Shown here: piece after piece, positions 15,050 through 63,210 of the stretch
Layout: each line of letters begins with the position of its first letter
How positions within the stretch are numbered: the first letter of the stretch is position 1
Assembly (NCBI GenBank): GCA_944387495.1
Contig: CALXFD010000005.1
Coordinates: forward strand, 1,803-65,802
Origin: an uncultured Clostridia bacterium
GTDB taxonomy: Bacteria > Bacillota > Clostridia > TANB77 > CAG-508
DNA length: 64,000 bases
Direction of reading: 5' to 3'
Position numbers and translations under genes: made by a program
The notes under the pieces: generated by a model
What the model was told of the DNA's origin: nothing
Database searches by the model: none
What the model saw: the letters and a program-made list of their open reading frames with translations, nothing else

Positions 15050-15970
15050 TTATTTTAATTTCTTTATTTCTTCTTCTGATAATTTAGTAATTTCACATAT
15101 TTTTTCTATTTCAAATCCCATTTTTAACAATCTTTTTGCTATTTCTCTTTTTTCTTCATTTTTTCCAGCTTTTCTACCTTTTTCAATCCCACGCTTTTCT
15201 CCTCGTCCTTCTGCATCATCTAATCCTGTATAGTAAATCCATCTTGCTATTTCTCTTTCTTCATACATTTCTCTTTCTTTTGGGTCCATGCTCATTACTT
15301 CTAATTCTGTTTTGGCTCTTTTTATTTCTTCATTTACTTTCTCTGCCATTTTGATTTTCTCCCCCTTTCCTACTAATAACCATAGCCATTGTGATAATTT
15401 ACTTTCTACCCCTGGTTCTTTTTCTATGAATTTTGGTAGCTCTATAAAATGGATTTCTGCATTTTCTGTTACTAATCCATTTTCTTCTTTATATCCCTTG
15501 TCTATATATTTTTCTTTTTCTACCTTATCAAATCTCATATGTGCTATATTATGATATGTATTTGTTTTAAAATAGTTGAAGTTTAATATCCAGATTACTA
15601 TCGTTTTTCGCAATTCTTGATATATCTCTCCTACTTTTAATTGAGGACTTATTAGTTTTGATAGATATGCTAAACTTCTATTTCCTAAGTTATGCTCATC
15701 TGATGTCTGCATTTCTATATCTAATGTTATTTCATCATTTATTTTTGCTTTTATATCTAGCCTTGCTAATTTCTCATCTAGTATGTTTTTTGGTATTTCT
15801 GGATTTTTTACTTCTACTTTTTCTATTTTTATTCCTAATATTCCTTCTAATAAGTCTTTTAATTCACTGTTACATTCGTCTTTGGAAAATATCCTTTTAA
15901 ACACATAATCGTTTGTCAGAGGCAAAATCTTTGTCTCTTTTACTTTTTTTATTAGTTCTTCTTTCTCCAT
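15050..15970 (-). CDS. Rpn-family recombination-promoting nuclease / PD-(D/E)XK putative transposase (YhgA-like)
   Basis: N-terminal LTNDYVFKRIF motif, the LDIKAK...DIEMQ nuclease core and a charged C-terminal tail. Confidence 0.8.
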   Translation of the reverse strand: MEKEELIKKVKETKILPLTNDYVFKRIFSKDECNSELKDLLEGILGIKIEKVEVKNPEIPKNILDEKLARLDIKAKINDEITLDIEMQTSDEHNLGNRSLAYLSKLISPQLKVGEIYQELRKTIVIWILNFNYFKTNTYHNIAHMRFDKVEKEKYIDKGYKEENGLVTENAEIHFIELPKFIEKEPGVESKLSQWLWLLVGKGEKIKMAEKVNEEIKRAKTELEVMSMDPKEREMYEEREIARWIYYTGLDDAEGRGEKRGIEKGRKAGKNEEKREIAKRLLKMGFEIEKICEITKLSEEEIKKLK

Positions 15971-16774: not shown

Positions 16775-18265
16775 ATGTTATTAAATAAAGTACTAAAAGA
16801 CGTAGAAATTATTGAAAGCAAAGGAAATTTAGATATAGAAATTACAAATATATCTTCTGATTCAAGAATTGTAAAAAAAGATTGTTTATTTTTTGCAATA
16901 AAAGGATACTCACTAGATGGAACAAAATTTATAAATAAAGCTATTGAAAATGGAGCTACTGGAATTGTAGTTGATGAAACTACTGACATTTCTGAATTAG
17001 CTATTCCAGATAATATTACTATTGTAAAATTAAATAATATAAGACATGCACTTGCAATTTGTAGCTGTAATTTATATGATTATCCTTCACGTAAATTAAA
17101 ACTAATTGGAGTTACTGGTACAAAAGGAAAAACAACATCTACATATATGATAAAATCTATTTTAGAAAAACATGGTCTTAAAGTTGGTTTAATAGGTAGT
17201 ATTTCAATATATATAGGTGACAAAAAACTAGAAGATACTGATAGAACAACACCAGAAAGTTATAAAATACAAGAAACATTAGCTATGATGGTTAAAGAAA
17301 ATGTAGAAGTTGCTATTTTAGAAGTATCATCACAAGCTATGAAATTAGATAGAGTTACAGGTTGTGATTTCGATATTGCTCTATTTACAAATCTATCAGA
17401 AGACCATATAAGCCCAAAAGAGCATAAAGATATGGATGATTATTTTAATGCTAAACTTTCTTTACTAAAATTAGCACCAAATATTGTTGTTAATGTAGAC
17501 AATGAGTGGACTGCAAAAGTTCCTTCTTTATTGCCAGATAAACATATAACAACATTTGGTATGAAAAATAAAGCAGATATTAGTATGAAGAATATTAGAC
17601 CAAGCAACTCTTCTGTTGAGTTTACTCTTGTTATGAATGGAGAAGAAAATGATATAAAAGTATCAATACCTGGTGAATATATGGCATATAATGCATTAGG
17701 AGCTATTGCAGTTTCTTCATATTTTGATGTTACAGTTGATAATATTAAAAAAGCTTTAAATCCATTTAAAGTATTTGGAAGAAGTGAAATGGTTCCAAAT
17801 AAATTAGGTTTAACTATTATGATAGATTATGCACATACTCCATCTAGCTTAGAATCTATTCTAAAAACAGTAAAACCATATACAAAAGGTAGAGTAATTT
17901 GTACATGGGGAGTTGGTGGAGATAGAGATAGTGCTAAACGTCCTATAATGGGAGAAATCTCTGGAAATTTAGCAGATTTTACAATATTAACATCTGACCA
18001 AGTTCGTACAGAAGACCCTAGAAAAATATTAGCAGATATTGAAGTAGGTCTTAAAAAGACAAATGGAAAATATACTGTTATTCTAAATAGAACAGATGCA
18101 ATAAGATATGCTTTATCTATTGCAACAAAAGATGATATTATTGTGTTACCTGGTTTAGGTAGTGACTTATATATTGAGTATATGGGTGTTAAATACCCTT
18201 ATGATGAAAGAGTTGTAATTCATGATATTATTGAAGAAATGTTGGCTAAAAAGAAAGAGGCTTAG
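16775..18265 (+). CDS. murE: UDP-N-acetylmuramoyl-L-alanyl-D-glutamate--2,6-diaminopimelate ligase
   Basis: GVTGTKGKTTST P-loop and the DRTTPES motif; 497 aa from the ATG at 16775 (SD GAGGTGA at 16763-16769). The ORF track starts at a GTG 9 nt upstream. Confidence 0.9.
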   Translation: MLLNKVLKDVEIIESKGNLDIEITNISSDSRIVKKDCLFFAIKGYSLDGTKFINKAIENGATGIVVDETTDISELAIPDNITIVKLNNIRHALAICSCNLYDYPSRKLKLIGVTGTKGKTTSTYMIKSILEKHGLKVGLIGSISIYIGDKKLEDTDRTTPESYKIQETLAMMVKENVEVAILEVSSQAMKLDRVTGCDFDIALFTNLSEDHISPKEHKDMDDYFNAKLSLLKLAPNIVVNVDNEWTAKVPSLLPDKHITTFGMKNKADISMKNIRPSNSSVEFTLVMNGEENDIKVSIPGEYMAYNALGAIAVSSYFDVTVDNIKKALNPFKVFGRSEMVPNKLGLTIMIDYAHTPSSLESILKTVKPYTKGRVICTWGVGGDRDSAKRPIMGEISGNLADFTILTSDQVRTEDPRKILADIEVGLKKTNGKYTVILNRTDAIRYALSIATKDDIIVLPGLGSDLYIEYMGVKYPYDERVVIHDIIEEMLAKKKEA

Positions 18266-19128
18266 AGATAAGCCTTTTCTAATTCCCCATCATATACTTT
18301 TGTACTTATACCTGTCATAAATATTTCATCTGTTTCTTTATTTATTTTTATATTTAAAACTCCACCTTTTAACATCACATTTACATTTTCTCTTACATAT
18401 CCATACAAATTTGCGACTTTTGCTACACAACATGCACCAGTTCCGCACGCATATGTCTCTCCTACTCCTCTTTCCCATACTCTCATTTTTATTGTTCTTC
18501 TATCAATTACTTGTGCAAATTCTACATTTGTTTTATTTAAAAAATACTTTGAATTTTCAATAAACTTTCCTACTTTTTCTACATCTATATTGTCAATTTG
18601 GTTAGTAAAAATAACAAAATGTGGATTTCCTATCGAAATACAATTTCCAATATATTCTGTATTTTCAATATTAAATTTCAAAGTTGTAATTTTACTACTA
18701 TCTTCAACTTGCATATTAGGTGTTAATATTAATTTAGTATCTAAACTTGTTTTCCCCATATTCACTTCTACACTTTCTACTTTATTATTTTTTAAAAATA
18801 ACCTCAATTTTTTTATACCTGCCAATGTTTCAACTGTTATATTTGTTTTATCTGTCAAATTATAATCATAAACAAATTTACCAACACCTCTAATACCATT
18901 TCCACACATCTCAGCTTGACTTCCATCACTATTATATATTCTCATCTTAAAATCAGCAATTTCACTATCCTCAATTAAAATAATACCATCTGCACCTGCT
19001 CCAAAATTTCGATTACTCATATATCTTGCCAATTGTGGAATTTTACTCTCATTTACTACCTCACCATTTTTTGCACAATTTATGTATAAATAATCATTAC
19101 CTAAACCATGAATTTTTGTAAATTTCAT
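18262..19128 (-). CDS. dapF: Diaminopimelate epimerase
   Basis: MKFTKIHGLGNDYLYI, catalytic Cys motifs (EMCGNG, YACGTGA), 288 aa. Confidence 0.9.
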   Translation of the reverse strand: MKFTKIHGLGNDYLYINCAKNGEVVNESKIPQLARYMSNRNFGAGADGIILIEDSEIADFKMRIYNSDGSQAEMCGNGIRGVGKFVYDYNLTDKTNITVETLAGIKKLRLFLKNNKVESVEVNMGKTSLDTKLILTPNMQVEDSSKITTLKFNIENTEYIGNCISIGNPHFVIFTNQIDNIDVEKVGKFIENSKYFLNKTNVEFAQVIDRRTIKMRVWERGVGETYACGTGACCVAKVANLYGYVRENVNVMLKGGVLNIKINKETDEIFMTGISTKVYDGELEKAYL

Positions 19129-19175
19129 TTTGTTACCTCCGTTTTTAGTTTTTCTTCTATTATTTTATTCATCAA

Positions 19176-19447
19176 AAATTTTTTTGTTCAAATTAGTGGT
19201 ATTTAATAGCTGATTATATTTTATAATTTTTCATAGTATCGCCTGGAACAGAGTAAGAAATAGAATTAGTTAGGCTTTTGAATGAGGAATGTTCACGGTA
19301 CCCGAAACGTTAGTGTAGGGGGGCTGAGTGAAAGAGGCTCATGAAAAAGCCTTACTAATTCTTTTCGAACGGCAGTGACCAAGATACTATGAAAAATTAT
19401 AAAATATAATCAGCTATTAAATACCACTAATTTGAACAAAAAAATTT
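19176..19447. repeat. 272-bp palindromic element: perfect 65-bp inverted repeats (19176-19240 and 19383-19447) flanking a 142-bp relatively GC-rich core
   Basis: I verified base by base that the reverse complement of 19383-19447 equals 19176-19240. The core contains a further 18-bp stem with one mismatch (19262-19279 with 19345-19362). Confidence 0.9.
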
Positions 19448-19483
19448 AACTATTTCGTTATTTATTAAAACTTTCTTAATCTA

Positions 19484-19512
19484 TTGTAAATCAATTATTC
19501 TTCAGCTATAAT
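19484..19512 (+). promoter_or_regulatory. Sigma-A-type promoter for the transglycosylase gene
   Basis: TTGTAA (19484-19489), 17-bp spacer, TATAAT (19507-19512), about 25 nt upstream of the start codon. Confidence 0.5.
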
Positions 19513-19537
19513 ATTTTTAGAAATCAGTGAGGTAATT

Positions 19538-20236
19538 ATGAAAATTTTTAGAAAACTATTTTTAATATTATTTATTTTATTAGCAGTAGCATTTGCAATA
19601 GTCTTTATTATCGGTTTCACATACTACTCAAAAGCTCTTGATGAAAAGCCCTTAATAACAAGAATAGATGAAGTCACAAACCAAGAACATTTTGTCACAT
19701 ATAATGAACTTTCCAAAAACTATGTAAATGCCGTTATTGCAGTTGAAGACCACAGATATTATGACCATGGAGCCATCGATTTATATGCAATTGGTAGAGC
19801 TATCTGGACCAATATTCGTTCAGGCAGTCTAGACGAAGGTGGTAGCACCATCACACAGCAAGTTGCCAAAAACATTATTTTTAACCAAGACAAAACCCTT
19901 ATAAGAAAATTAGGAGAAATATTTGCAGCATTTGACTTAGAAAAAAATTATAGTAAAGAAGAAATCTTAGCTCTATATGTTAATACTGCATATTTTGGAG
20001 AAGGTTATTATGGCATTTATGATGCTAGTATGGGATATTATAATAAAGAGCCAAAAGATTTAACAATAGATGAAGCATCTATGCTTGCAGGTGTTCCAAA
20101 TGCTCCTTCTGCATATGCCCCAACTGTTAACCCCGATTTAGCAAACAAACGCCAAAAACATGTATTAGAATGTATGGTAAAATACAATTATATTTCTCAA
20201 TCTGAGGCAGACTCGATTATCAATAATAAGAAATAA
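19538..20236 (+). CDS. Monofunctional biosynthetic peptidoglycan transglycosylase (GT51)
   Basis: N-terminal TM helix; GT51 motifs AVEDHRYYDHGAID, GGSTITQQVAKN and RKLGE. Confidence 0.85.
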   Translation: MKIFRKLFLILFILLAVAFAIVFIIGFTYYSKALDEKPLITRIDEVTNQEHFVTYNELSKNYVNAVIAVEDHRYYDHGAIDLYAIGRAIWTNIRSGSLDEGGSTITQQVAKNIIFNQDKTLIRKLGEIFAAFDLEKNYSKEEILALYVNTAYFGEGYYGIYDASMGYYNKEPKDLTIDEASMLAGVPNAPSAYAPTVNPDLANKRQKHVLECMVKYNYISQSEADSIINNKK

Positions 20237-20251
20237 ATTTAGCTTTACTAA

Positions 20252-20296
20252 AACCAGATAGAAAAATTCAAAGTTTAATTTTTTCTATCTGGTTTA
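20252..20296. terminator. Bidirectional terminator hairpin between convergent genes
   Basis: ACCAGATAGAAAAA / TTTTTCTATCTGGT stem. Confidence 0.6.
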
Positions 20297-20363
20297 ATAA
20301 AGCTTTAAAGATTTTTATCACAAATTTTATTTGCGTTCATTTTGATTTAACCTACAATATTTA

Positions 20364-21416
20364 TTACATTTTATCCACTATTATTCCACCACCAAGCAAT
20401 ACTCCTGTATCATCATAAAAAACTACTGATTGTCCCTTAGTGATTGCTCTTTGTGGTTCTTCAAAATAAACTTCTACATTATTTTCATCAATTATTTTCA
20501 CTTGTGCTTTTGCTTCTTTTGCCCTATATCTAATTTTAGCAAATACTTCTAATTCGTTTCCTTTTACATCTATAAGCCAATTTATATTATTTGCTTTTAA
20601 GCCTGAATTATATAGAGCCTTTTCTTCCCCTACTATTACTTCATTTTTACTTTTATCAATATCTATAACATATAAAGGCTCTTTATATGAAACTCCTAAA
20701 CCTTTTCTTTGTCCTATTGTATAATTTATAATTCCTTGATGTTTTCCTAATATTTCTCCACTTTTTAATACTATATTTCCTTTTTTACTACTTACACTTC
20801 CTTGTTTTAATAAAAAGTTTTTATAATCATTATCTTTTATAAAACATATTTCTTGGCTATCTTTTTTCTTTGCTACTTCTAAACCTGCTTCTTGTGCTAA
20901 ATTTCTTGTATCATCTTTGCTTTCATTATTTTGCAGAGGAAATATTACTTTTTCTATAACATCTTTTGGAATTGAATATAAAAAGTAGGTTTGGTCTTTC
21001 TTTTCCTCGTTTGATTTTCTTATTACTTTTTGCCCATATTTTTCTGAATATTCTGTTTTAGCATAATGACCTGTTGCTATATATTCACAACCTAATTCTT
21101 TTGCTTTTTGTGCAAATAATCCAAACTTAATATTTTTATTACATACAACACATGGATTAGGTGTTCTAGCATTTTTATATTCTTCTATAAAATTTTGTAT
21201 TACATAACACTTAAATTCTTCTCTACAATCTATAACATGATGTTCAATTCCTAACTTTTCACACACTTTTTTTGCATCAATTATTGCTTCTTTATTTTCT
21301 TCTTCTAATAAATTCATTGTACATCCTATTACATTATATCCCATCTGTTGTAGTAAAATAGCAGAGGCTGAACTATCTACTCCTCCGCTCATTCCTAATA
21401 GTACTTTTTTATCCAT
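20364..21416 (-). CDS. mnmA: tRNA 2-thiouridine(34) synthase
   Basis: PP-loop LGMSGGVDSS; 350 aa with typical MnmA layout. Confidence 0.9.
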   Translation of the reverse strand: MDKKVLLGMSGGVDSSASAILLQQMGYNVIGCTMNLLEEENKEAIIDAKKVCEKLGIEHHVIDCREEFKCYVIQNFIEEYKNARTPNPCVVCNKNIKFGLFAQKAKELGCEYIATGHYAKTEYSEKYGQKVIRKSNEEKKDQTYFLYSIPKDVIEKVIFPLQNNESKDDTRNLAQEAGLEVAKKKDSQEICFIKDNDYKNFLLKQGSVSSKKGNIVLKSGEILGKHQGIINYTIGQRKGLGVSYKEPLYVIDIDKSKNEVIVGEEKALYNSGLKANNINWLIDVKGNELEVFAKIRYRAKEAKAQVKIIDENNVEVYFEEPQRAITKGQSVVFYDDTGVLLGGGIIVDKM

Positions 21417-36319: not shown

Positions 36320-36337
36320 TTTTATATCATCCTTTCT

Positions 36338-36501
36338 GACCAATTGGGGACGTTTCTTTTTGGACATTTTTGACCATTTGGGGACGTTTCCTTTTGGACA
36401 TTTTTGACCAACTAGGGACGTTTCCTTTTGGACATTTTTGACCAAAAGGAAACGTCCCCAAATGGTCAAAAATGTCCAAAAAGAAACGTCCCCAATTGGT
36501 T
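36338..36501. repeat. Intergenic array of 34-bp units: three direct copies (36338-36371, 36372-36405, 36406-36439) followed by two inverted copies (36442-36467 truncated, 36468-36501)
   Basis: The unit is GACCA-NNN-GGGGACGTTTC(C/T)TTTTGGACATTTTT. Positions 36339-36397 are perfectly complementary to 36442-36500 (59 bp). Confidence 0.9.
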
Positions 36502-60958: not shown

Positions 60959-61173
60959 TTTTTCCCCTCTCGAAATTTTATTATGTATTGATTATATCTT
61001 ATTTTGTTTCTTATATCAAGCTTTATTTTTGTTGCTTTATTAAAAAGTTTAAGAAGATTTTTTAACGTATTTTTAATTTTTTATTAGGACTTGCTTATTT
61101 TTTAATTTTATTATAATATAATACAGTATATTAATGCATGCAGAATTAGATGAAAGGAGTAAAAAAACAAACT

Positions 61174-61335
61174 AGCGCCAGGACACTTAGTTCTAAACAA
61201 GTGTTGACGAGGTTCAGGGTTATCGAAAAATTCGGCGGATGCCTTGATGGCTTACTTATAGTCATTAGTATTAAACAAAAAGTTGTAATATACAATAACA
61301 AAAATTAATACACATAAGTTAAATGCATGCCTTAA
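61174..61335 (+). ncRNA. glmS glucosamine-6-phosphate-activated ribozyme in the glmS leader
   Basis: AGCGCCAGGAC...GACGAGG...TTATCGAAAAATTCGGCGGATGCC matches the conserved glmS ribozyme core immediately upstream of glmS. The 3' boundary is approximate. Confidence 0.85.
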
Positions 61336-61371
61336 ATTCCAAAAACAAAATATTAATTAGGAGGAATGATT

Positions 61372-63210
61372 ATGTGTGGAATTGTAGGTTATATAGGATA
61401 TCAAAAAGCAAGTCCAATTTTAATTAATGGTCTTATAAGACTAGAATACAGAGGATATGACTCAGCAGGGATTTCAACTATTGAATCTGATGGGTTATCT
61501 ATTATGAAAGATAAAGGTAGAGTTAGAAATTTATATGATTTAGATGGAATAGATGATTTGAAAGGTACTATTGGTATTGCACATACTAGATGGGCAACTC
61601 ATGGTAAACCTTCAAAAGAAAATTCTCATCCACATCAAGATAATTCTAAAACATTTAGCGTTGTTCATAATGGTATTATTGAAAATTATAATGAACTAAA
61701 AAAATTCTTAATAGAAAATGGTTATAAGTTTTATTCTGATACAGATACTGAAACTATACCAAATTTAATTCATTATTATTATATGAAAAATAAAAATACA
61801 GGTATTCAAAGATTTCTAGAAGCTGTTAGAAATGCATGTGCAGATTTAAAAGGTAGTTATGCTCTTGAAATTATTTGTAAAGATTATCCAGATAATATGA
61901 TAGTAACAAGAAAAGATAGTCCACTTGTAATTGGTAAAGGAAATGGAGAAAATTATATTTCTTCTGATATTCCAGCTATACTTTCTTTTACAAGAGATTT
62001 TTATTTGTTAAATGATTTTGAAATTGTTCTTCTTTCAAGAGATGAAGCTAAATTCTATGATATGGATTTAAATAATATTGATAAGAAAACAAAAACAATT
62101 GAATGGGATGCTACAAGCAGTGAAAAAAATGGTTTTGATGATTTCATGCTTAAAGAAATTTATGAACAACCTACTGCTATTAGAGAAACTATTGGTTCTA
62201 AATTTAGTGAAAATTCTAAATGTGAATTTGAAGAATTAAATTTTGATAAAGACTTTTTATCAAATATCAAAAGAATTTATATAGTAGCTTGTGGTACTGC
62301 TATGCATGCTGGTTTAGCTGGTAAAAATGCAATTGAAAAACTTTGCAGAATTCCTACTGAGGTAGATATTGCATCTGAATTTAGATATAGAGAGCCATTA
62401 ATTGATGATAAAACATTATGTATTTTTATTTCTCAATCTGGGGAAACAGCAGATACTATTGCTGCATTAAAACTTTCTAAATCACATGGTGCAAAAACTC
62501 TTGCTATTAGTAATGTTATAGGAAGTTCAATTACAAGAGAAGCAGATTATTGTTTATATACACATGCAGGTCCAGAAATAGCAGTTGCATCAACAAAAGC
62601 ATATACTTCACAAGTAATTTTATTAGTAATACTTGCTATATATTTTGCTGAGATATTAGAAATTAATACAGAAAAAGTTAATTCTCTTAAAAAAGAAATT
62701 TTAACATTACCTAAAAAAATAGAAGAAACATTAAAATCTTCTTCACAAATAGAAGATTTTGCTAAAAAAGTATATCAAGAAAAAGACATTTTCTTCTTAG
62801 GTAGAGGTGTTGATGAAAATGTTGCAAAAGAAGGTTCTTTGAAATTAAAAGAAATTTCATATATTCATTCAGAAAGCTATGCTGCTGGTGAATTAAAACA
62901 TGGACCTATTGCATTAATTGAAAAAGATGTAACTGTTATTGGTATAATGACAGATGAAAAATTAGTTGAAAAAACTGTTAGCAATTTACAAGAAGTAATA
63001 ACTCGTGGTGCTAAAACTTTAATTATAACAAATCAAAAAATTGATGAATCTATGTTTGATATGGTTATAAATATACCTAAAATAGATTGTTTTGTATCAC
63101 CAATATTATCTATTATACCTTTACAATTATTTTCTTATTACATTGCAAAGGAAAAAGGATTAGATGTTGATAAACCTCGTAATCTTGCAAAATCTGTAAC
63201 AGTTGAATAG
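61372..63210 (+). CDS. glmS: Glutamine--fructose-6-phosphate aminotransferase
   Basis: N-terminal MCGIVGY (catalytic Cys after Met), SIS domains, C-terminal KSVTVE. ATG at 61372, 7 nt after AGGAGG. Confidence 0.95.
   Translation: MCGIVGYIGYQKASPILINGLIRLEYRGYDSAGISTIESDGLSIMKDKGRVRNLYDLDGIDDLKGTIGIAHTRWATHGKPSKENSHPHQDNSKTFSVVHNGIIENYNELKKFLIENGYKFYSDTDTETIPNLIHYYYMKNKNTGIQRFLEAVRNACADLKGSYALEIICKDYPDNMIVTRKDSPLVIGKGNGENYISSDIPAILSFTRDFYLLNDFEIVLLSRDEAKFYDMDLNNIDKKTKTIEWDATSSEKNGFDDFMLKEIYEQPTAIRETIGSKFSENSKCEFEELNFDKDFLSNIKRIYIVACGTAMHAGLAGKNAIEKLCRIPTEVDIASEFRYREPLIDDKTLCIFISQSGETADTIAALKLSKSHGAKTLAISNVIGSSITREADYCLYTHAGPEIAVASTKAYTSQVILLVILAIYFAEILEINTEKVNSLKKEILTLPKKIEETLKSSSQIEDFAKKVYQEKDIFFLGRGVDENVAKEGSLKLKEISYIHSESYAAGELKHGPIALIEKDVTVIGIMTDEKLVEKTVSNLQEVITRGAKTLIITNQKIDESMFDMVINIPKIDCFVSPILSIIPLQLFSYYIAKEKGLDVDKPRNLAKSVTVE

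Follow-up and report, generated by a model that had tools for sequence, protein, structure and literature searches.

The palindromic element of 272 bp at positions 19176-19447 of the window (the whole 64,000-nt stretch of DNA analyzed here) is likely a diverged, relic copy of a dispersed MITE family, no longer mobile and with arms that have been homogenized. A MITE-like insertion was among the explanations offered in the original prediction, and it is supported by homologues at ~40 other sites, by direct repeats of 8-9 bp around some copies and by empty sites in relatives. MITEs are recognized as small, non-coding elements with terminal inverted repeats, dispersed intergenic copies, direct repeats that decay and a stable fold (PMC10969869). 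The assignment to this class is supported, and the reading of the element as a gene switch is unsupported. The parts of the element are as follows.

19176-19240, no strand assigned: left arm, 65 nt, 17% G+C (16.9% for the arms), perfect inverted repeat
From 19208, inner ~33 nt of the left arm: aligns to the left arm of the repeat family (nhmmer family profile)
19241-19382, plus strand: core, 142 nt, 43.7% G+C, an imperfect hairpin homologous to the conserved family core
19259-19286, plus strand: 5' half of the inner core stem, pairing with 19338-19365 over 28 nt (86%)
19281-19301, plus strand: 21-mer AATGAGGAATGTTCACGGTAC, signature of the family, apical in the core
19338-19365, plus strand: 3' half of the inner core stem, partner of 19259-19286
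19383-19447, no strand assigned: right arm, exact reverse complement of the left arm

The element is shorter than ~500 bp, non-coding and bounded by terminal inverted repeats. A repeat search confirmed that the arms are complementary at 65 of 65 positions and lie 142 nt apart, and among perfect inverted repeats of the 64-kb window whose spacer is ≤600 nt they are the longest. A 30-mer from the arm has two sites only in the window, one in each arm, with 0 expected from shuffles. The core had been estimated at about 44% G+C, which holds, with the underlying count corrected from 63 to 62 of 142 nt; G+C is 25.6% for the window, and only 0.19% of 142-nt segments reach the level of the core. The 18-nt inner stem with one mismatch described earlier is present within the longer 28-nt stem, and the motifs GGTACC (19297), TTCGAA (19364), GTGACC (19375) and TATAAA (19398) were all found. 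With DNA parameters the whole 272 nt folds as one hairpin (-88.2 kcal/mol, z = -20), and the core alone folds far better than shuffles on the two strands (z = -5.5 and -5.9). No ORF of at least 40 aa lies inside 19176-19447 in the ORF list, and short ATG frames in the core are disrupted by indels among the family copies. A resemblance to integron attC core sites (GGTTAGGC...GCCTTACC) was dropped, the order of the boxes being reversed relative to attC.

The genes on either side are those originally predicted, namely a DAP epimerase gene (dapF) at 18262-19128 on the minus strand and a gene for a Transgly-domain protein, a monofunctional transglycosylase, at 19538-20236 on the plus strand. Two promoter-like sites were found between them.

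19162-19191, minus strand: promoter-like site facing dapF, a consensus match only
19484-19512, plus strand: promoter-like site TTGTAA-17-TATAAT facing the transglycosylase gene, a 10/12 consensus match

In the dapF-facing site, the -35 hexamer TTGAAC (19191-19186) lies in the outer end of the left arm and is followed, after an 18-nt spacer, by a -10 hexamer TAAAAT (19167-19162) outside the element; the left arm may thus donate the -35 hexamer to a dapF promoter. The transglycosylase site lies entirely outside and downstream of the element, and a consensus promoter scan found no promoter-like site in the core or at the core junctions. By these matches the element probably sits between two divergent promoter-like sites and belongs to neither transcript.

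Sensitive blastn of the element against the retrieved loci gave a match in L024/L025, from the species whose transglycosylase homologue is 75% identical; the core match is 80% identical over 104 nt (E = 6e-20). That copy, flanked by an HD-domain gene and an aminotransferase gene, has long inverted arms of another sequence than those of the window, and the window is empty at the site where L024 has its insertion. A search pattern consisting of the 21-mer common to the window and L024 cores, AATGAGGAATGNTCACGGTAC, was found in 43 metagenome contigs representing ~40 distinct flanking contexts. Seventeen of these 43 are contigs of one assembly with 5-6.5x coverage, among them the L024 locus (L076), so the sister species holds at least ~17-20 copies. 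The hosts are a group of uncultured gut bacteria with ~26% G+C. One contig carries, 4.6 kb from its main copy, a second and much more diverged copy (L084:1284-1442, nhmmer E = 3e-13), which indicates that the 21-mer search undercounts old copies. Family core patterns and a core 22-mer were absent from viral contigs, and blastn of the window element and a family copy against plasmid and phage collections returned no match.

Family copies are ~290 nt long and non-coding, and reside in AT-rich intergenic DNA. Their termini are conserved, running from TTAC(T)ATATAAT... to ...ATTATATAGTAA(C), that is, TTAC...GTAA(C), and exact inverted arms of 23-42 nt are found at a constant position in almost all copies. 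The family core is ~135 nt, imperfectly palindromic and 40.6% G+C, compared with 26% for the surrounding contigs. The earlier argument that a GC-rich island in AT-rich intergenic DNA is usually a structured RNA is therefore inapplicable here, since the GC-rich core is a trait of the repeat family. An nhmmer profile of the family matches the window at 19208-19437 (E = 1e-34). In the family alignment, which is oriented by the plus strand of the window core, the inner core stem of the window corresponds to helix 4 and shows compensatory changes. The window copy is the most diverged, with ~56% identity in arm columns and 72% in the core, and its arms are poorly placed in the alignment. In contig L094 (768-1030) the left half comes from one copy, and the right half and the flank beyond it are those of the L058 copy; the contig is either a recombinant or an assembly chimera formed through the conserved core. 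The gene order gdpP-rplI-dnaB seen in a relative, AddA, the glmS ribozyme of the window and the 26% G+C suggest that the host belongs to an uncultured, Firmicutes-like gut lineage of low G+C.

Direct repeats abut several family copies. They are exact in L085 (AAGTAAGT, 8 bp) and L057 (CATATAGAA, 9 bp), and near-exact, with one indel, in L072, L067 and L084. In a boundary-anchored test, which used automatic and imperfect boundaries (that of L057, for example, was misplaced), 6/17 copies matched at ≥6/8 positions, as against 12.9% of mismatched-pair controls (P = 0.016); this gives modest statistical support for target-site duplications in the family. A test based on the longest common substring (6.3 vs 5.8) did not discriminate in AT-rich flanks. 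Many copies have no recognizable direct repeat, as is expected for old insertions (PMC10969869), and none was recognizable around the window copy, whose very AT-rich flanks offer only AA at both boundaries or displaced TTATTT(T)ATT-like matches that are indistinguishable from chance. A parent element with the family termini (TTACTATATAAT...ATTATATAGTAA) was sought using nhmmer profiles of both ends. In 766 kb of retrieved loci no autonomous IS with matching termini was found, and the plasmid, phage and viral collections gave no match; the end-profile matches in the 766 kb were complete or truncated copies only. The parent IS may reside elsewhere in these genomes or be extinct. The half-copies L061 and L065, next to an AddA-like helicase gene and to a region where a tyrosine recombinase is encoded, were considered as ends of a parent IS and were set aside as truncations, no transposase being present.

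The relatives with the next most similar transglycosylases (84%, 78% and 75% identical) have dapF-transglycosylase spacers of 451, 129 and 274 bp, and the element is in none of these empty sites (L022, L023 and L024). The L023 spacer of 129 bp is close to the 137 bp that remain when the 272-bp element is subtracted from the 409-bp spacer of the window. Presence or absence of the element is thus polymorphic among relatives, as for a MITE. The L023 contig (ONAT22-1_SAMEA6814472 scaffold_26449), compared with window 19129-21353, is itself of mosaic make-up. From ~19685 on (the 3' part of the transglycosylase gene and mnmA) its identity to the window is 95%, and strong divergence is seen in dapF, in the spacer and in the first 150 nt of the transglycosylase gene, which places a recombination breakpoint adjoining the element.

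Contigs of the window's own species were collected from many samples and assemblers by look-up of the exact flanking proteins and close variants. All 27 distinct contigs that span the 409-bp spacer carry the element in the window orientation, and 7 partial contigs that join a flank to the core have the same orientation. Strains carrying the element are 97.5-100% identical to the window, with flank differences up to ~2.4%. Across strains the spacer has three SNPs in the core (19242, 19257 and 19323), one in the flank (19173) and none in the arms, where ~2 would be expected, a difference that is not significant. Low-coverage contig L110 (BRZ_DS NODE_16299, 3.5x) has a 44-bp deletion between short ATTTT repeats (window ~19118-19165) that removes the dapF start codon and ribosome-binding site and leaves the element intact; it may be a real variant or a low-coverage artifact.

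These observations suggest the following history. Family copies would presumably be inserted by a DDE-type transposase acting in trans, with staggered cuts of 8-9 bp as the direct repeats imply. Insertion of the window copy into the spacer that separates the divergent promoters of dapF and the transglycosylase gene would postdate the branching off of the nearest relatives sampled and predate the divergence of strains within the species. Its arms would later have been made exactly complementary over 65 nt, with erasure of a left/right asymmetry, the likely route being intramolecular template switching or arm-to-arm gene conversion. Today the window copy is most likely an immobile relic, and its main possible effect would be architectural, in that it spaces two promoters and may lend the -35 hexamer to dapF.

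Some observations speak against a MITE. Multiple dispersed copies were found for the family as a whole; blastn and nhmmer found no second copy in the window's species, with one copy in 64 kb, and mobility there is unproven. An arm 22-mer gave nothing in metagenome or viral contigs and no true match in GTDB representative genomes, where the sole match, in a Colwellia MAG (L021), was taken as chance. The core is more conserved between copies (87-88% identity) than the arms (73.5%), whereas in MITEs the transposase-binding termini are usually the best conserved part, a hint that the role of the core depends on its sequence. Where copies lie between co-directional genes, 15 are antisense and 3 are sense after de-duplication of sites (P = 0.0075), antisense being defined relative to the alignment orientation that we chose, and a symmetric cut-and-paste element does not predict such a bias. 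Frequently the right end of a copy and the stop codon of the neighboring gene are 2-20 nt apart or overlap. Selection against one orientation, replication-strand bias and gene-end targeting are candidates for the cause of the orientation bias. Fifteen nucleotides before the left end of one family copy is a terminator-like hairpin (L085:5429-5483), and copies may insert beside intrinsic terminators.

Covariation was computed over 71 pairs in an alignment of 24 copies and compared with 500 shuffles. Paired cells make up 95.6% of the alignment, compared with 87.2% in shuffles, and 38 of the 71 pairs show changes on both sides, a number reached in 0 of 500 shuffles; when partners are slid by 1-3 columns, pairing falls to 41-49%. 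Although the arms differ between copies, Watson-Crick pairing within each copy is 93-100%. The arm mismatches comprise 15 G·T and 17 A·C, with no wobble bias on either strand, and this speaks for maintenance of the pairing in the DNA itself and against selection acting on an RNA. Of the long-hairpin RNA once proposed for this element, then, the hairpin is upheld by covariation, while RNA-level pairing is not (15 G·U vs 17 A·C). The pattern of compensated changes points to homogenization of the arms at the DNA level. Replication template switching can create or repair perfect stems in one event (PMC8794818), and DNA-level arm copying of this kind would explain the copy-specific, perfectly compensated arms in every family copy.

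The outer arms of the family provide markers for such copying, the left arm carrying TGTAGAGTAGCTG and the right arm, read as its reverse complement, AAATTAGCCGCTG. Among the 23 other aligned copies, 20 show this left-right asymmetry, two are ambiguous and one (L068) is left-left; in 0 of the 20 left-right copies is the core flipped relative to the asymmetric arms. In L068 (3644-3905) both outer arms are of the left type and there are several mismatches further in, suggesting that two copies recombined or that an arm was replaced. Taken together, these counts indicate that family cores do not invert and that arm-to-arm replacement happens. The window copy has the longest perfect arms and lacks the asymmetry of the family, so at least one of its arms would have been overwritten from the other. 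An assignment of both window arms to the right type was dropped, as it rests on only 1-2 fewer mismatches.

The conservation of the core could also reflect a functional structured RNA under RNA-level selection, such as a small RNA or a hairpin that processes or stabilizes 3' ends, a reading we regard as possible but rather unlikely. It gains from the higher conservation of the core relative to the arms, from bulges and an invariant G·U pair (columns 139-167) kept in 24/24 copies, and from compensatory pairs in the core helices; the preferred orientation relative to flanking genes, the frequent start of copies 2-20 nt after a stop codon and a weak terminator-like hairpin at 19334-19353 also fit. 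The preferred orientation, however, places the complement of the conserved G·U strand, an A·C mismatch, in the flanking transcripts, and the arm mismatches lack the wobble bias expected of pairing in RNA. The window element lies upstream of both promoter-like sites and hence outside both predicted transcripts, and no conserved two-hexamer promoter was found in the family. The Rfam comparison proposed with the original prediction gave no covariance-model match for the window copy or a typical family copy: with Rfam 15 the window copy had no match at E ≤10, at gathering or permissive thresholds, and the family copy had chance-level matches only. A tRNA/tmRNA search found none.

Less probable again, and in our view unlikely, is that the family goes beyond a passive MITE and consists of hairpin elements whose arms are regenerated from each other and whose better-conserved, asymmetric core acts as a module through its specific sequence, perhaps as a recognition site for a protein or an RNA. 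The arms would be regenerated by fold-back or template-switch copying during mobilization, or by an active host process that perfects palindromes. If true, this would account for the orientation-specific placement just after gene ends, and the perfect complementarity of the window arms (65/65) would record a mechanism still at work, not an accident of history.

An invertible, phase-variable promoter is very unlikely. According to this proposal, recombination between the arms flips the core and moves a hybrid promoter, GTGACC-17-TATAAA, between the transglycosylase gene and dapF. The hybrid failed the consensus scan, and the better site for the transglycosylase gene (10/12) lies outside the element. 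An inverted core would create the junctions CATAGTATC to TTGGTCACTG and GTTCCAGGC to GATACTATG. One partial contig, L017 (ERZ24773372 NODE_8836), extends from dapF across the left arm and then matches 133 nt of the core, inverted, at 100% identity, and several assemblies break within the element; inversion of a Correia MITE has also been reported (cited in PMC10969869). At the level of contigs, this one stands against 34 in the window orientation, some of which were assembled by MEGAHIT with k = 87 or k = 141, both longer than the arms, so that orientation is set by k-mers alone. L017 has 3.6x coverage, ends 9 nt before the far core junction and can be explained as an assembly artifact: since the 65-nt arms exceed the usual SPAdes k = 55, traversals of the core would be ambiguous in the graph, and a left junction left uncovered in such a graph would yield a contig of this kind. 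The constant orientation of the core in the 20 marked family copies also speaks against inversion. Pfam lists show no recombinase domain among the neighbors within ~5 kb (an Rpn-family PDDEXK nuclease, an aminotransferase, a Mur ligase, MnmA, AspS and an HD-GYP protein), though a recombinase acting in trans is possible. The Rpn-family gene (PDDEXK_2, "recombination-promoting nuclease/putative transposase") lies at 15050-15970 on the minus strand, 3.2 kb from the element; no link between the two was found, and tblastn against plasmids gave best homologues of its product, from Clostridium perfringens, that are only 37% identical.

Long perfect inverted repeats are a classic signature of fold-back chimeras from library preparation or assembly, but the chance of such an artifact is negligible, as 27 independent contigs that span the element, drawn from different studies, samples and assemblers (including the k = 87 and k = 141 assemblies), share exactly this structure and carry strain-level SNPs in core and flank, and homologous elements of the same architecture occur in other species.

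As a MITE, the window element can be compared with known families. Correia elements (CREE/NEMIS) are 100-155 bp long with 26-bp terminal repeats and a TA duplication, whereas the elements described here are 272-290 bp with 8-9-bp duplications. In Neisseria, these small palindromic MITEs lie adjacent to promoters and can supply promoter hexamers (PMC10969869). Correia elements are thus palindromic MITEs by promoters and the closest precedent for the idea of a MITE combined with a switch, but the promoter role in the window is a consensus match only, and inversion is unsupported here (34 vs 1 contigs; 0/20 family copies flipped). QMITE2 of Coxiella burnetii has direct repeats of 7-9 bp, terminal repeats of 23-29 bp and a core of 113-145 bp (PMC10969869). 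Our family resembles it in direct repeats (8-9 bp), terminal inverted repeats (23-42 nt for the exact arms and 65 nt for those of the window copy), core size (~135-142 nt) and folding into a single very stable hairpin (-88 kcal/mol), a close likeness of layout; no relation in sequence is expected. It differs in its low-G+C gut hosts, in longer arms that are compensated copy by copy and in a core more conserved than the arms.

ERIC/IRU, the bcr repeats of Bacillus cereus and the pneumococcal RUP/BOX/SPRITE repeats are dispersed intergenic imperfect palindromes with compensatory stem changes, and in these respects the present family is like them. Those repeats are often co-transcribed with their neighbors, and their covariation is usually read as RNA-level selection. 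They belong to other sequence families and are mostly shorter, and the lack of wobble bias in our family points to the DNA level instead. Template-switch (quasipalindrome-correcting) mutation (PMC8794818) fits both the copy-specific perfect arms and the lost asymmetry of the window copy; as a process of mutation it is not itself a family of elements, and sequence patterns suggest its action here.

For annotation, a GC-rich palindrome between cell-wall genes that could be taken for a regulatory RNA or a phase switch is thus likely a transposon relic. The analysis defines a repeat family in abundant uncultured gut bacteria, likely of the known MITE class, with copy-specific perfect arms, a core better conserved than the termini and an orientation bias as its unusual traits. 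It breaks metagenome assemblies, with many contigs ending inside copies, and can create chimeras such as L094 may be; it could also serve as a strain or species marker. The copy-specific perfect arm pairs form a natural data set on whether stems evolve by DNA template switching or by selection for RNA pairing.

Elsewhere in the window, a glmS ribozyme at 61163-61321 scores 85.7 bits against a gathering score of 37 and is the only Rfam model above its gathering score in the whole window; directly downstream is an ORF of 614 aa (61366-63210), presumably glmS. A second long palindrome, unrelated in sequence to the 272-bp element, lies at 36333-36500 between two minus-strand ORFs. Its arms (36339-36397 and 36442-36500) are perfect at 59/59 positions, and it is built from a 34-nt unit, GACCAAnTGGGGACGTTTCyTTTTGGACATTTTT, present three times head-to-tail and then about twice inverted. 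The layout is reminiscent of an iteron-like array of binding sites or of a further repeat family.
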